From the IMG/VR virus record IMGVR_UViG_3300017973_000001, positions 45,431 through 109,430 of that record: a stretch of DNA of 64,000 nt. One strand, written 5' to 3'. This DNA comes from a virus. Shown here one piece after another: positions 2,640-43,169 of this stretch (the first letter of the stretch is position 1; every line of letters begins with the position of its first letter). The position numbers were made by a program, and so were the translations under genes. A model generated the notes under the pieces. It had not been told where the DNA came from and ran no database searches. It saw only the letters and a program-made list of their open reading frames with translations.

Positions 2640-4082
2640 CTAGAAGACCTCGGAAGTATCTCCGAATGACATAGCAACCCTTACAAACTCAGTCACATTG
2701 TCAAACTTAGTCCTTATAGACCTTAGTGAATTTGCTAGGAAATCTGCTATTATCCCATTCAAATCATGTGGGTATAGATTTATCCCCTTTTTAACCAATG
2801 TTTTCACAGTTGAATAAGCCTCATCTTTTGTAAAGCTTAAGTCTTTCACTAACCGATTGCAAATATCCCCCGGATATTCCTTAACTACTTCTACTGCTTC
2901 AGCATTAGGTTTATTCTCAAGCCAATTATGGAACGGTATCTTGCCAGTGTATGGAGTCTCCACTTTAGGTTCCAATTCATCTTTTGCTATTTGGTTGGTT
3001 TTTTGATTACCAATTTCATTGTCTATGAACCTAGCAAAACAACTTCCAGGAGACGAAACTGCATTTTTATATTTATACTTCTTGTAGTCAATTAAAGTTT
3101 GTTGGACTACTAAGTTAGAAATCTCAGTATGCCTGTACACCTTATATAGCTTATTAAGTGCTTGTAGTATCTGCCCTTCTGTAAACCCATTGTTAGACAT
3201 TACTTGATAAATATTTTGATAACTTAAATTAGTTTGTAACACATTTAATATTTCTTCGTCATCATGCTTTTTCTTTGGTTCTATTTCTTGATTATATTCA
3301 TATTCTGTTATAGGAGCCTTATCATGATGATTATTATATAGTGTATTACCATTATAAGTATGGAAAGTAAGTATGCTTATTAATAGGGATTCAATTCGTT
3401 GAACCTGGTCGCTTAACTCATTTGAACCCCCTATTTCTACTGAAGTGTTGGTATCACTAGGTTTTTCGGGAGGAGCTTCAGATTGAACTTCTTTTTGAAC
3501 CCCTGGAATTTTGAACCCTTCAGCTTCAGCTAGGTCCTCTATAGTTATTCCGTTTTTACGCATAAGCTCACGGATTTTATCTATTGGGCTAACTGCGTTT
3601 TTTAAGCGAGTAATTAGACTCTTTTTAGCCCCTTCAATACCGGATTTACGGTGTTTAACGTTAAGCTCCTTATGGTTGCGTACTTTAACAAGAGGTTTAT
3701 TACGTAACTCATAATCCCCTAATGGATAGTTCTGAATTATAACGACTGTTTTAGGAGTTCCAGTTGTATGTTCATTGGATTTTACAAAGTCTACTAACCC
3801 GTAGTCATACATTATGTTTAAATATTTACGCATTGTGTTAGAGGCTATACCACGGATTCTAGCCAACCCTTTAATTCCGTATGTAATTCTTCCAACGTTA
3901 CTCTCTTTAGTACGAGTAGCCATTGTATGTAGTTTACATAGTTCTAAGTAGACCTTGTCCCCTAATACGCCAATCCATTGGTCAATGCATGTATATGAAT
4001 TAAACGGTATATATAATTCATTACGTTTACGTTTTTTCTGTACATCAATATCTATAATATTTTCTGCATGCGAAAAAGACAT
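2640..4082 (-). CDS. HTH replication initiator protein
   Basis: N-terminal winged HTH (GIKGLARIRGIASNTMRKYLNIMYDYGLV), low-complexity linker with DNA iterons, KIPFHNWLE motif like Bacillus phage/plasmid Rep proteins. Confidence 0.7.
   Translation of the reverse strand: MSFSHAENIIDIDVQKKRKRNELYIPFNSYTCIDQWIGVLGDKVYLELCKLHTMATRTKESNVGRITYGIKGLARIRGIASNTMRKYLNIMYDYGLVDFVKSNEHTTGTPKTVVIIQNYPLGDYELRNKPLVKVRNHKELNVKHRKSGIEGAKKSLITRLKNAVSPIDKIRELMRKNGITIEDLAEAEGFKIPGVQKEVQSEAPPEKPSDTNTSVEIGGSNELSDQVQRIESLLISILTFHTYNGNTLYNNHHDKAPITEYEYNQEIEPKKKHDDEEILNVLQTNLSYQNIYQVMSNNGFTEGQILQALNKLYKVYRHTEISNLVVQQTLIDYKKYKYKNAVSSPGSCFARFIDNEIGNQKTNQIAKDELEPKVETPYTGKIPFHNWLENKPNAEAVEVVKEYPGDICNRLVKDLSFTKDEAYSTVKTLVKKGINLYPHDLNGIIADFLANSLRSIRTKFDNVTEFVRVAMSFGDTSEVF
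3399..3517. repeat. iterons inside rep (candidate origin)
   Basis: TTGAAC at 3399, 3422, 3483, 3495 and 3511, next to AT-rich 3230-3390. Confidence 0.55.
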
Positions 4083-4286
4083 TATTATGCGATCCTCCTA
4101 CAGAGTGGTCCCCAAAGAAAACCTCACACACACAACAACGTCTCTCTTTATCTATCTCTATATCTGTCTATTTACCCATAGATTTATTAAAATTTATATT
4201 ATATTCTATTAAAATATGTAATATTTTTTTAATAAAAAATGTACGGTAAAACCTTGCATACCCCTAATTTTATATGTATAATGGGG

Positions 4287-5599: not shown

Positions 5600-5678
5600 A
5601 ATTCAGCAATTTCCCCTTTTCGTTCGACTATGTAGGTTAGACCTCACATAGTTCTTATACGAAAAAGAGAGACGTTAA

Positions 5679-5870
5679 TTAACGTCCCCTTTTCTTCATT
5701 CTCTTGCTGAGAGTTTTCATTACTATCACACACTCATCTGAACAGATGTAAGTAGCAAAATCATTATGAATTTGGTAAGTGTGTTTACCACAAACACCAC
5801 ATTCCCCGGCTTGCTCTACATTGTAAGTCAATACTTCTGACTTGTTTTTTAATATAGCTTTATTCTCCAT
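5679..5870 (-). CDS. small zinc-binding protein
   Basis: CGVC..CSDEC; SD AGGGGG. Confidence 0.65.
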   Translation of the reverse strand: MENKAILKNKSEVLTYNVEQAGECGVCGKHTYQIHNDFATYICSDECVIVMKTLSKRMKKRGR

Positions 5871-26308: not shown

Positions 26309-26366
26309 AGTCTCCTCCATATGAAAATCCCTCCCGGAAGGGGGAGGGGGGTAGCTTTTACCTCTT

Positions 26367-27711: not shown

Positions 27712-27766
27712 TTTAAAATTCCTCCTCATAGTTAAACCCTCCCGGAAGGGGGAGGGCATATTTATT

Positions 27767-31967: not shown

Positions 31968-32198
31968 TTAACACGTCCCACAATAAGAGATTGCAAGTTC
32001 TATAGGGTTTTGTCCAGGGTCATCATGCTCAGTTCCGATAAAGTCACGTCTGCATATATCACAAGTATCCCAAACAATGCCAACCTCGTTGTTAACGTGG
32101 TTAAGCAGTATGTTATAAGGTTTCTCATATCCATGTACGAACTGAGAAGGGATGAGTTTAACTGTTTCTCCAAATTGTTGCGTAGTTCCTAAAGCCAT
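31968..32198 (-). CDS. zinc-binding hypothetical protein
   Basis: CDIC..CGTC; SD AAGGAGG. Confidence 0.65.
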   Translation of the reverse strand: MALGTTQQFGETVKLIPSQFVHGYEKPYNILLNHVNNEVGIVWDTCDICRRDFIGTEHDDPGQNPIELAISYCGTC

Positions 32199-39840: not shown

Positions 39841-39990
39841 CTATGTTTCACGTATAATTACCCAAAACAACATAGCCGGAACCAGGCACAATACCCCATA
39901 AATATACCTACCATTACATAAAGATACGACTGAGCATGTTATACCCGAAAATACCATGAACCATAAGAGAAACAATATAGTAAACTTCAT
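39841..39990 (-). CDS. 49-aa 2-TM membrane peptide (not in ORF track)
   Basis: MKFTILFLLWFMVF..; ATGA overlap with upstream ORF. Confidence 0.55.
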   Translation of the reverse strand: MKFTILFLLWFMVFSGITCSVVSLCNGRYIYGVLCLVPAMLFWVIIRET

Positions 39991-40193
39991 ATCTTCTCTA
40001 CCACGTAGTAGTAAGCAAAATCTAACCCCGTGTTTTTGTCATTATAGACGTGATCCACATAAGCATATGTATATTTCTCACCATATAACGTGATTTCTTG
40101 CCCTTCAATTAGTTTAGGGAGCTCATGGTATAACGGTTGCACATCTATTATCTTTTCTTCTCCAATTTCAAAGAAACAAAGTCCTTTTCGCAT
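39987..40193 (-). CDS. hypothetical protein
   Basis: SD AAGGTGGT. Confidence 0.65.
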   Translation of the reverse strand: MRKGLCFFEIGEEKIIDVQPLYHELPKLIEGQEITLYGEKYTYAYVDHVYNDKNTGLDFAYYYVVEKI

Positions 40194-40204
40194 GAAAATA
40201 CCAC

Positions 40205-40575
40205 CTTTTTAGTAAAATTAAGCGTTTTTAGGTGTTTTTGAGCATTTTTTAACGTTTTTTATGATATTTTCGGTGTTTTTTATCACTTTTGAGTAGTTTT
40301 TAAGTGTTTTTATGCTATTTTAAGCGTATTTTAGTACTTTTTGGGCCGTTTTAGGGTGTTTTTAGACGTTTTTGACACATTTTTAGGTCACTTTAAGCCA
40401 TTTTGGACCTATTTTGACTCATTTTAATGCTAATTTCAGCTCTTTTCAGCCCATTTCAGCTCTTTTTTAGCAGTTTTTATTAAAAAATTGGCTATTTTTT
40501 GAATTAAATGAACGTTTTTAAGCCTTTTTAAGCAAAAAATACGGGTTTTTAGACCTTTTTTCAGCTCGTATTTGG
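40205..40575. other. phased T-tract (intrinsically curved) DNA
   Basis: T3-T6 runs recurring every ~10-11 bp over ~370 bp; no ORF of 60 aa or more. Confidence 0.75.
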
Positions 40576-40590
40576 CCTTATTATTCGTGT

Positions 40591-40866
40591 TTATAACATG
40601 CTAACTGTAGCTATAACCTGGGATGGCAAGTTATTTAGACTAGTTAACCCCATAATAAATGTAATACCTAGCTTGCTATTATGTACTAGTCTCATATTGT
40701 CATCATATGTTTTCAAATAGTAGTCTAGCTTTTCCTGGAAGTTTTCACGGGGATTGATAATTAGTTCCTCGTATTTTGCTACTCCTTCGACTGCGATCAT
40801 TACATAACTGAAAGATTCATCCTCTATGATGACATTGAATGTTTGTTCAAACTCAGTTTTCTTCAT
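40591..40866 (-). CDS. conserved Bacillus-phage-type hypothetical protein
   Basis: ELIINPRENFQEKLDYYLKTYDDNM. Confidence 0.75.
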   Translation of the reverse strand: MKKTEFEQTFNVIIEDESFSYVMIAVEGVAKYEELIINPRENFQEKLDYYLKTYDDNMRLVHNSKLGITFIMGLTSLNNLPSQVIATVSML

Positions 40867-40886: not shown

Positions 40887-40992
40887 GAAAAAAGGTCCCT
40901 CAGCTTGGAAAGGGACCCCTTGACAGTGAAAATAAATGTAAAAACCAATGTATACTTCTAACGGAGAGCAAGAAATATATATTCTTTAGTCC
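40887..40992 (-). ncRNA. candidate sRNA or attenuated leader
   Basis: TTGATT-17-TATATT; hairpin with CTCTCC loop; terminator GGTCCCT..AGGGACC-T6. Confidence 0.55.
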
Positions 40993-41120
40993 ATCTAAAT
41001 ATATCAATATAGTTTATCTAAATCAATAATCCAATAGTAACATTAAAATTTTATGAGCCTCAGTAGATTAATAGAGTTTACACCTATACTAACTGTGATT
41101 AAACAATAGGAGGGATAGGT

Positions 41121-41858
41121 ATGAATTACAAAATTGTAAAAGACTCTCTTGATCTACGGGACAAAATCTACACAAGTAGCAAATACAAAACAGTAAATGA
41201 CGTACCGGCTCAGACAAATAACTCAGCTTTAATTGATTGGGTTTTTGACCAGGGGCATGAGGGATCGTGCACTGCTAATACTTTTGCTAGTATGCGTATG
41301 TATTTGCTTAAAAAGAATGGTCAAACGGCACCAGTATTAAGCCGTGCTTATATCTACTGGCATGAACGTAAATATGAAGGAACTACTAACCAGGATTCCG
41401 GAGCTCTTTCAAGGGATGGAGTAAGAACGTTACTAGAATTTGGAGTATGTACAGATAATGCTATGCCGTACAGTGACCGTTCATATGGGGTTGCTCCATC
41501 AACACAAGCTGAAGCTGAAGCTTTCAGATATAAAATCAACGCTTACTACCGTGTTCCGGACGTTACTACTTTGAAAATGGCTCTTGCTGATGGACTAGTA
41601 GTATCACTGGGAATGACAGTTTATAAATCGTTTGAGTACGGAACAGTAGGTGAGACCGGTATTTTTGAGACACCTGGTTTATTTGAACAGAAATTAGGTG
41701 GCCATGAAGTACTGATTGTAGATTATAAAAAAGTTGGAAATTCATACGAGTACAAAGTGTTAAATAGTTGGGGAGAAAACTGGGGCCAAAGAGGTTATTT
41801 TTGGATTACTGAGACTCAGCTAAAGAAAGTAGCTATGGATTTTTGGACTGCTAACTAA
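41121..41858 (+). CDS. papain-like cysteine peptidase (C1A)
   Basis: DQGHEGSCTA, GGHEVLIV and NSWGENWGQRGY catalytic motifs. Confidence 0.92.
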   Translation: MNYKIVKDSLDLRDKIYTSSKYKTVNDVPAQTNNSALIDWVFDQGHEGSCTANTFASMRMYLLKKNGQTAPVLSRAYIYWHERKYEGTTNQDSGALSRDGVRTLLEFGVCTDNAMPYSDRSYGVAPSTQAEAEAFRYKINAYYRVPDVTTLKMALADGLVVSLGMTVYKSFEYGTVGETGIFETPGLFEQKLGGHEVLIVDYKKVGNSYEYKVLNSWGENWGQRGYFWITETQLKKVAMDFWTAN

Positions 41859-41859
41859 A

Positions 41860-41940
41860 CGAAAAAGAGCCCTCCGGGATTCGGTAGGGTTCTTTCTCTG
41901 TTAAATAAACTAATAGGAGTGCTACCCGTCAGTAGCACAT
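41860..41940 (-). ncRNA. sRNA cassette 4 of tandem array
   Basis: TTGATG-17-TATATT; 5' hairpin GTGCTAC/GTAGCAC then TCCTATT; terminator. Confidence 0.6.
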
Positions 41941-41979
41941 CATCAAATATACCAGGTTTTACCAATATCATCAATAACA

Positions 41980-42043
41980 AAACAAAAAGTACCCCATCCG
42001 ACAAGGGTACTCATTGTTGACAAAAATTAAAATAAAAGGAACT
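41980..42043 (-). ncRNA. sRNA cassette 3 of tandem array
   Basis: TTGCTC-17-TAAATT; TTCCTTT; terminator AGTACCC..GGGTACT-TTTT. Confidence 0.55.
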
Positions 42044-42078
42044 TTTATAATTTACCAGTTATTGGGGATAAGAGCAAG

Positions 42079-42158
42079 AGAAAAAGGTACCAATTAAGGT
42101 ACCAGTTCTCAAAGGAAATTTTAATTTACTAATCATGAAATAATATTAGAAAAAGGTA
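42079..42158 (-). ncRNA. sRNA cassette 2 of tandem array
   Basis: TTGATT-17-TATACT; ACCTTTTTC and TTTCCTTTG; terminator GGTACC-ttaatt-GGTACC-TTTTT. Confidence 0.55.
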
Positions 42159-42182
42159 ATATTAGTATAATTTACACCGTTT

Positions 42183-42258
42183 AAAAAATCAAGAGAGGTA
42201 CTGGACCTCTCCACCTTCTTGTATAGCACACTACTAGATTTTGTTTGGAGAAGGTATT
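42183..42258 (-). ncRNA. sRNA cassette 1 of tandem array
   Basis: SigF/G-like GTATA-15-GGTAATGATA; 5' ACCTTCTCC; terminator GAGAGGT..ACCTCTC. Confidence 0.5.
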
Positions 42259-42386
42259 TTTATCATTACCCTTATTAGCAATGCTTATACTTGTCTACTC
42301 TATATGTGTACCGGGAGGTAACTCCCACCACCAGGAGGGAAGGTTATACCTTTCCTCTTTTAATTTTATAAAGAGGAGGACAAGAT

Positions 42387-43169
42387 ATGTCATTATTTAA
42401 AACGATTCAAGTATTTGATACGTCTGTATTAAGCCCTGGAACTGCAATTGATTATGAAACAAAAACAGTTAAGTTTAATGGCCTTATCACTCGTTCAGAT
42501 AATTTTATCTTAGAGATTGATTACTATGATCCATCTGCCCTTAATACGGGTAGTCTAATGATTGCACTGGATGATGTAGTTAAACAAAAAGTAGCAATTA
42601 ATATTCTAGAAAATACTACACATACTGTTCCGGATACTACTCCACCGGATAATGTAACTGGTGTAACTGTATCTCCTAACTACACTGCCGTTGTTTTAAG
42701 ATGGACTAATCCAACTGGATTCAGTGACTTTAACGGTGTAAACATCTATCGAGACGGAACATTAGTTGTTAAAAACTTAGTTAACACAACGTTTACAGAT
42801 ACTTCTCTAAATGAAGGACAAACTTACACGTACATTATTAAATCAACTGACCTAGCTGATAATGAGTCAGATGGTATTACGAAAGTTACTACTACACTTG
42901 ATTCTGTACCTCCTAGTGATGTAGCTAACTTACGTGGTGGTTTAATTACAACCACAAGTATTGAATTATTATATGACCTACCGACTGACGCTGATTTTGA
43001 CCATTTAGTTATCCTACGTAACAATGTTCAGATCGCAAACAGTGTAAGAACTCCGGCTTTCACAGATAATGGATTATCTACTGGCCAAGTTTATAACTAC
43101 ACTGTAATTGCCGTTGACCTAAGTGGAAATCAGACTGCCGGGGTTGATATTAGTTTATCTGCTTTATAA
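42387..43169 (+). CDS. fibronectin type III domain protein
   Basis: two DxxPP..W..YRDG..FTD..L..YTY..D repeats. Confidence 0.88.
   Translation: MSLFKTIQVFDTSVLSPGTAIDYETKTVKFNGLITRSDNFILEIDYYDPSALNTGSLMIALDDVVKQKVAINILENTTHTVPDTTPPDNVTGVTVSPNYTAVVLRWTNPTGFSDFNGVNIYRDGTLVVKNLVNTTFTDTSLNEGQTYTYIIKSTDLADNESDGITKVTTTLDSVPPSDVANLRGGLITTTSIELLYDLPTDADFDHLVILRNNVQIANSVRTPAFTDNGLSTGQVYNYTVIAVDLSGNQTAGVDISLSAL

Follow-up and report, generated by a model that had tools for sequence, protein, structure and literature searches.

Candidate leftward mini transcription units in an intergenic gap of a large phage genome

Can an intergenic gap of a large phage genome hold a row of small RNA genes that point against both of its neighbours? 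The question is raised by a gap of 528 bp (41859-42386) in a window of 64,000 nt, that is, the whole stretch of DNA analysed here, which spans bases 45431-109430 of the 109,430-bp IMG/VR record IMGVR_UViG_3300017973_000001 with direct terminal repeats. Coordinates below refer to this window unless stated otherwise. The gap separates a gene for a C1 (papain-family) cysteine peptidase on its left (41121-41858, plus strand; Pfam PF00112 Peptidase_C1, E 6e-16) from a gene for an FN3-domain protein on its right (42387-43169, plus strand; Pfam fn3, E 7e-6). The initial annotation had made the gap 430 bp long, which is too short, but was right that no open reading frame (ORF) lies in it: on neither strand did we find a credible ORF of at least 8 amino acids led by a Shine-Dalgarno (SD) sequence, and the one frame to be seen, which starts with TTG, crosses two terminators and is implausible. 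We tentatively read the gap, with a confidence approaching but not reaching an even chance, as a row of ORF-less mini transcription units that point leftward within a variable accessory region and would probably yield RNAs of 45-90 nt. Small non-coding RNAs from the gap are plausible. The structural feature is real, whereas the silencing mechanism that had been proposed for it is over-interpreted.

Terminators, promoter strings and a repeated module

Four terminator-like hairpins, T1-T4, close the putative units 1-4 from right to left. T1 (42192-42212, minus strand) is the weaker terminator, with an 8-bp stem, GGAGAGGU-CCAGU-ACCUCUCU, the tail TGATTTTTT, a folding free energy (dG) of -10.4 and d-scores of -27.9 (minus strand) and -58 (plus strand). 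T2 (42086-42103, minus strand) is GGTACC-TTAATT-GGTACC followed by the tail TTTTTCTCTT (6-bp stem, dG -9.0, d-score +11.5 vs -58 on the plus strand). T3 (41981-42018, core 41987-42012, minus strand) has a 9-bp stem and the tail TTTGTTTTGTT (dG -12.7 vs -9.1, d-score +7.1 vs -55); its stem includes two G-U pairs, which turn into A-C mismatches on the plus strand. T4 (41861-41898, core 41866-41893) is a bidirectional terminator with tails on both strands, TTTTCGTTT on the minus and TTCTCTGTT on the plus strand (d-score -8.3 vs -13.9); its dG is -11.6 for the minus-strand core, -18.2 for the extended minus-strand hairpin and -15.9 on the plus strand. The terminators of units 2 and 3 have a GGTACC core in common.

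The polarity of T1-T3 is clear. Their T tails exist on the minus strand only, their plus-strand d-scores lie at about -55 to -58, and the G-U pairs in both T1 and T3 become A-C mismatches when read on the plus strand. From these letters, T1-T3 are clearly predicted to be minus-strand terminators, while T4 is best read as a bidirectional terminator that closes both unit 4 (minus strand) and the peptidase gene (plus strand). Of the earlier statement that each unit ends in a GC hairpin and U-tract on the minus strand, the four sites stand, but the core of T4 is more stable on the plus strand. The d-scores of T1-T3 all fall within the range of the obvious gene-end terminators of this phage (-33 to +27).

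Such sites are more frequent here than expected by chance. A consensus scan found five terminator-like sites in 2.2 kb, compared with 1.1 +/- 1.0 in shuffled sequences, and dinucleotide shuffles of the gap (n=300) contained on average 0.39 minus-strand sites, with a probability of 0.003 for at least three on one strand. The gap holds the sole cluster of at least four same-strand terminator sites in the 109-kb genome and the sole ORF-free cluster of at least three among four related genomes (this one and three relatives).

Promoter candidates of unequal quality precede these terminators. P2 (42164-42192, minus strand; TTGATT-17-TATACT), the -35 element of which overlaps the T tail of T1, matches the consensus at 9 of 12 positions, as does P4 (41946-41974, minus strand; TTGATG-17-TGgTATATT), which has a TG extension in addition. 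The distance from P2 to T2 is 78 nt, and that from P4 to T4 is 85 nt. P3 (42049-42077, minus strand; TTGCTC-17-TGgTAAATT) is weak; with 7/12 matches plus TG it fell under the scan threshold and was read from the sequence. For unit 1, the stretch 42213-42290 (minus strand) comprises the body together with the P1 string GTATA-15-GGTAATGATA, which had been called sigma-F-like and was located by a regular-expression match. P1 is not a sigma-A promoter, and it departs at one conserved position from the sigma-F -10 consensus. The idea that each unit has its own promoter therefore survives in part: all four strings are present, but only P2 and P4 reach the sigma-A threshold. Leftward promoter-to-terminator units without an ORF are a reasonable description of units 2 and 4 and a possible one of units 1 and 3.

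The form of P2 and P4 recurs nearby. The pattern TTGATK-N16-18-TATAYT, which was defined post hoc, occurs four times in the genome, compared with 0.4 expected; the stretch 40998-42192 contains three of the four matches, all on the minus strand, including one that precedes a real minus-strand gene (40591-40866). In addition, the spacer of P4 contains the quasi-palindrome GGTAAAACCT (41954-41963), a copy of the motif GGTWWRACCT. The window holds ten such copies against 1.4 expected (7-fold), almost always intergenic, at 4245, 5635, 7860, 36419, 38436, 39833, 41954, 42341, 43397 and 48930, and the first 45 kb of the genome contain three more. The motif is often directly followed by a -10-like TATxxx. 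One copy sits in the loop of a terminator-like hairpin just 5′ of the ribosome site of the FN3 gene (42333-42359, plus strand; 12-bp stem, dG -14.8, GGTATAACCT motif in the loop, tail TTTAATTTT). Judged by this distribution, GGTWWRACCT is probably bound by a phage regulator as its operator, or else belongs to promoters specific to the phage.

The predicted RNAs of the four units differ in how far they fold beyond their terminators. Unit 4 (41856-41940) folds at -32 kcal/mol with a z-score of -5.4, and none of 200 shuffled sequences folded as well. Its predicted order is a 5′ hairpin, GUGCUACUGACGGGUAGCAC, then a single-stranded UCCUAUUAG (41919-41938, minus strand) and the terminator. The z-scores of units 1-3 range from -2.0 to -3.6, to which the terminators contribute most; unit 1 has the value of -2.0 at -17.8 kcal/mol.

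The unit bodies had been described as different from one another. This holds only in part, as a 5′ module of about 25 nt, (G)GTAAAT(TA)TAAAA.T(T/A)CCTT(T/C), is common to units 1-3. Alignments placed four copies on the minus strand, at 42245-42275 in unit 1, at 42147-42176 and 42108-42134 in unit 2, and at 42031-42059 in unit 3. Exact GTAAATTA occurs three times within 121 nt compared with 17 times in 219 kb (both strands), and a composite pattern of the module has four matches in the genome, three of them in the gap, compared with 0.5 in shuffled sequences. A sequence-only model of the module detected no further copies in the rest of the genome or in three related genomes. Among the presumed duplicates, the module is about 85-90% identical. 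If the duplication is real, the module, consisting of a -10-like element and CCUU, would have been retained while the spacers diverged. A separate reading of the module on the plus strand, as decayed ribosome-binding sites (RBSs) with mini-ORFs, was rejected, as start codons are absent.

A variable region beside a captured host gene

The whole record has a G+C content of 35%; its early arm, at 2.6-34.9 kb, runs leftward, and the genes from 36.5 kb onwards run rightward. In an IMG/VR search, its TerL protein was 61-71% identical to those of uncultured phages and proviruses of about 103-113 kb, and the nearest cultured relatives, at 51%, were the Brevibacillus phages Jenst and SecTim467 and the Bacillus phage EZ-2018a. 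The GenBank phage collection gave no DNA match, and a tRNA/tmRNA scan returned none. The sole public run with this sequence is a peat metagenome (DNA), its probable source, in which the contig is identical to the window and has no variant joints.

The two genes that border the gap have very different relatives. The FN3 protein has one homologue, at 31% identity, among 5.8 billion proteins. The peptidase shares 70% amino acid identity with the product of a chromosomal gene of Gottfriedia endophytica (L073) and 71% with that of a gene on a peat bacterial contig (L054), and relatives in a protein search reached up to 70%. Scans of metagenome contigs and GTDB genomes with a peptidase profile yielded bacterial chromosomal homologues only. 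Nucleotide identity is 68%, and the homologous stretch is confined to 41108-41864 of the window, from the ribosome site to the stop codon, corresponding to 2325-3080 of L054 and 2989-3739 of L073. Judged by this alignment, the peptidase gene is a captured host gene (moron), a clean host-to-phage transfer in which homology stops at the ORF borders. The insertion is recent, and its orientation is opposite to that of the leftward block around it. The nearest relatives of the captured gene, which are on Gottfriedia-like chromosomes, also offer a clue to the host: it is probably a spore-former of the Bacillaceae.

The bacterial contexts of the peptidase homologue deserve a separate remark. In Gottfriedia-like Bacillaceae the homologue is flanked by RNase P RNA/RlmL and a DinG-like helicase, and the peat contig L054 also carries a class-B RNase P RNA, RlmL and a DinG-like helicase. 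After the homologue on that contig, at 3220-3340, lie about 120 nt of GC-rich, structured-looking sequence with no Rfam hit at the gathering score.

The region around the gap is variable among relatives. In IMG/VR, a search with the peptidase, FN3 and TerL proteins showed that the TerL relatives (61-71%) are without both flanking genes and without the gap, and the whole genomes of three relatives contain neither similarity to the gap nor an ORF-free terminator cluster. The content upstream of the small terminase gene (terS) differs in every relative, and this is therefore a variable accessory region.

These features suggest how the locus may be built. The gap would form the upstream end of a leftward accessory block of about 39.5-42.3 kb, placed between the rightward middle genes and the terminase/structural operon, into which the host-derived peptidase gene would have been inserted in opposite orientation. 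Beside the peptidase gene, the leftward series runs on with a promoter (41026-40998), a leader terminator (40918-40893), the gene at 40591-40866, three small leftward ORFs and a terminator (39592-39558). Within the gap, two units would be complete, namely unit 2, which spans about 80 nt from P2 to T2, and unit 4, which spans about 85 nt from P4 to T4 and has a strong 5′ hairpin, whereas units 1 and 3, with weak or non-standard promoters only, are doubtful. Should the promoters be active, non-coding RNAs of 45-90 nt would be made by the sigma-A RNA polymerase of the host; the transcription, the RNA ends and any function are predicted. By construction, such RNAs would show full complementarity to RNA that reads through rightward from the peptidase gene towards the FN3 gene. 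The stacked terminators would shield the peptidase gene from leftward transcription, and for this reason the first-order effect would be local insulation together with antisense control. A role of the unit RNAs in trans is conceivable.

Seed motifs and rival readings

The initial annotation had gone further and proposed four independent trans-acting small RNAs (sRNAs), each with a CU-rich anti-SD seed directed at a different RBS, as a modular RNA-silencing array. The four CU motifs, ACCUUCUCC, UUUCCUUU, UUCCUUU and CUCCUAUU in units 1-4, are present as written, so that every unit has one; in units 1-3 a CCUU falls inside the retained module, at or near the 5′ end of the predicted RNA. All are CU runs with two C residues. 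RsaE, FsrA, SprD and LhrC are defined by a UCCC motif located in a loop or a single-stranded stretch (PMC4132741). UCCC does not occur in the bodies of units 1-4, and its single copy is partly in the loop of T4, a placement that resembles LhrC (PMC4132741). The likeness to the C-rich anti-SD seeds of RsaE/RoxS and FsrA is thus not borne out: units 1-3 contain neither UCCC nor a C-rich loop, and in unit 1 the motif is paired in the predicted fold, ACCUUCU forming a stem with AGAAGGU.

Pairing predictions gave no better support to the idea that the cassettes block the RBSs of different host or phage mRNAs. When RNAduplex was applied to 150 phage start regions, the unit bodies had no advantage over shuffled sequences (100 per unit): the share of shuffles that equalled or surpassed the body was 0.60, 0.81, 0.34 and 0.06 for units 1-4. 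No extended antisense match was found in the phage genome, a Gottfriedia genome or 105 genomes of the Gottfriedia family. A 31-nt T-rich match in the Gottfriedia family (E 9e-5 per genome) was set aside, since its context is unrelated and we judged it to be chance. The pyrimidine richness of the minus strand here simply reflects the plus-strand orientation of the flanking genes, and the CU motifs would pair with any SD sequence, so that nothing points to distinct targets. At the gathering score, no Rfam family was found in the whole window, and a permissive search of the gap gave none either, with Yfr10 (20.7 bits, gathering 43) and ncr1015 (20.5, gathering 60) as the best minus-strand matches, at E >2. 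Taken together, these results make the silencing array quite unlikely. Still more doubtful, at the level of speculation, is a tandem-duplicated family of phage sRNAs the retained 5′ end of which (..UUCCUUU.., identical to a part of the anti-SD tail of 16S rRNA) would bind SD regions and, with a separately regulated unit 4, act as a dosage-tunable brake on host or phage translation.

A row of leftward mini transcription units is favoured by the enrichment of terminators, the strand asymmetry of T1-T3, the form of P2 and P4, which matches the promoter of the neighbouring gene, and the fold of unit 4, and also by the operator-like motif in P4, the lack of an SD-led ORF, the borders of the peptidase homology, the variability of the region and the shared module. 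Several results weigh against it. Promoter-like sites with 9/12 matches are not enriched (5 vs 8.9 in shuffled sequences over 2.2 kb; 37 vs 43 over 13 kb), so that of the promoter-terminator arrangement described earlier the terminators rise above the shuffled expectation and the promoter-like sites do not. In this AT-rich DNA such sites are common: genome-wide, 16% of terminator-like sites have one 45-140 nt upstream, and the chance that two of four terminators have a well-placed one is therefore about 0.09. Under uniform placement and a permissive definition, a four-site terminator cluster would arise somewhere in the genome with P = 0.06-0.18, and chance clusters of three to four sites were found within the coding DNA of relatives. 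T1 is weak as a terminator, and T4 is accounted for by the peptidase gene alone, which needs one anyway. The whole gap folds alike on both strands when compared with shuffled sequences (z -4.8 and -4.9), and the strand assignment therefore rests on the T tracts and G-U pairs. Leave-one-out profiles of the module recovered only two of its four copies, with E >1; that units 1-3 are diverged local duplicates is for this reason likely but not proven. Finally, we found no homologue of the gap in the GenBank phages, IMG/VR, metagenome contigs and GTDB genomes searched, and the public sequencing runs with this sequence include no RNA run.

Part of this evidence fits another arrangement, in which the gap is only a terminator stack or insulator that keeps stray leftward (antisense) transcription from the peptidase gene and from the leftward genes that follow it, the promoter strings are chance and no discrete sRNAs are made. 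The terminators are indeed the only feature with statistical support, the promoter-like sites being no more frequent than in shuffled sequences, and a TTG straight after a T tract is expected from composition; moreover, the phage terminators directly before ribosome sites at 40893-40918 and 42333-42359 suggest control by read-through or antitermination. But no strong leftward promoter is evident upstream, every gene further right having plus-strand orientation, and three to four serial terminators for no known transcript would be unusual. The match of P2 and P4 to the promoter form of the neighbouring gene and the operator-like motif in P4 also speak against chance strings. We regard a pure terminator stack as possible but rather unlikely. 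It is unlikely that the gap is non-functional debris of a hyperplastic region, made of decaying tandem duplications and of moron cassettes emptied when recombination removed their ORFs, with hairpins that persist only through being recent. The region varies among relatives, the peptidase gene was recently inserted, local repeats are present and conservation is absent; in T4-type phages, cassettes of the PeSL type shuffle promoter/stem-loop units and can lose the enclosed ORF (PMC2839356). Against decay, the stems are intact as perfect 6-9-bp helices with correctly placed T tracts, and a module kept at about 85-90% while the spacers diverged looks like selection rather than uniform decay. Highly improbable is a DNA-level element in which inverted repeats and GGTWWRACCT sites bind proteins for packaging or replication or as an operator cluster close to the terminase genes, although both strands fold equally well, two copies of GGTWWRACCT lie in the gap, a phased A-tract array is 1.3 kb off and terS, the small terminase gene, follows 1.1 kb downstream. 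All hairpins have their T tract on the same side, as is typical of intrinsic terminators and not of binding sites; the G-U pairs in T1 and T3 are sensible only in a minus-strand RNA, and the stems have no common sequence by which a single binding protein could be recognized. Type I/III toxin-antitoxin systems, a CRISPR-repeat mimic and a retron were also considered and dropped for lack of a hydrophobic peptide, of identical repeats and of a reverse transcriptase gene.

Other elements of the genome are recorded here in their own right. Between the leftward ORFs 39987-40193 and 40591-40866, an ORF-free stretch of 370 bp (40218-40590) contains about 35 phased A5/T5 tracts with a 10-11-bp period, in units like GCTTAAAAA; it looks like intrinsically bent or iteron-like DNA and could be a candidate origin or packaging-related site. 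Both the ORF at 40591-40866 (40893-41026, minus strand), which has a promoter about 105 nt upstream, and the FN3 gene (42333-42386, plus strand) have a terminator-like hairpin and T tract directly before the ribosome site. This placement suggests leader attenuation or antitermination-dependent expression. Near-identical terminators also recur at distant sites. The hairpin GGAGACGTT(T)AATTAACGTCTC with the tail TTTTTCGTA is found at 5668-5689 (minus strand) and at about 32076-32100 of the genome (window -13355 to -13331, plus strand), and CCCTCCC..GGGAGGG at 26329-26348 and 27737-27756, which hints at mobile or recombining terminator cassettes elsewhere in the genome.

Relation to known systems

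A close parallel is provided by the PeSLs (promoter-early stem-loops) of T4-type phages (Arbiol et al. 2010), a family of dispersed repeats numbering about 50 per genome, which have a consensus promoter and shown promoter and terminator activity (PMC2839356), and which normally lie just upstream of a co-oriented ORF (PMC2839356). Like PeSLs, the units described here would be small cassettes of a sigma-70-type promoter and a terminator stem-loop, able to insulate neighbouring units. PeSLs occur in hyperplastic, ORFan-rich locations beside plastic genes, and the host-derived peptidase and the orphan FN3 gene on the flanks of the gap provide the same setting. In contrast to the dispersed repeats, all four copies of the module are in one gap, with none elsewhere in the genome or in three relatives. 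The promoters have 7-9 of 12 matches and are not consensus promoters, and the units, which are known from sequence alone, enclose no ORF and point against both flanking genes.

As candidate RNAs, the units resemble LhrC, RsaE, RoxS and FsrA. These sRNAs of Firmicutes are about 100 nt long, have a promoter and an intrinsic terminator of their own, and pair with SD sequences through pyrimidine-rich motifs. Several LhrC copies stand side by side in tandem. LhrC1-4 of Listeria monocytogenes are multicopy sRNAs that are full-length paralogues, carry three UCCC motifs in loops or single strands, are regulated by LisRK and have verified targets (PMC4132741, PMC5880928). The phage units differ in sharing only the 5′ module of about 25 nt, in having UCCC once, in the loop of T4, and in giving no Rfam match. 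What this analysis adds is that module (GTAAATTA...CCTTT) in units 1-3, which hints at local duplication.

OOP of phage lambda and sar of P22 are antisense RNAs of about 70-90 nt with their own promoter and terminator, ending at or near the 3′ end of a neighbouring gene. OOP overlaps the 3′ end of the cII coding sequence and is conserved among lambdoid phages. Unit 4 is similar in that its terminator is common with the convergent peptidase gene; unlike OOP, it overlaps the terminator only and is known from one genome. The present value of the locus is modest, that of a plausible prediction. If the units are not transcribed, the gap would be a clear case of a terminator stack insulating a recently captured host gene. 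If they are transcribed, it would represent a compact head-to-tail stack of small RNA genes from the large phages that infect spore-forming bacilli, in which RNA regulators have hardly been studied.

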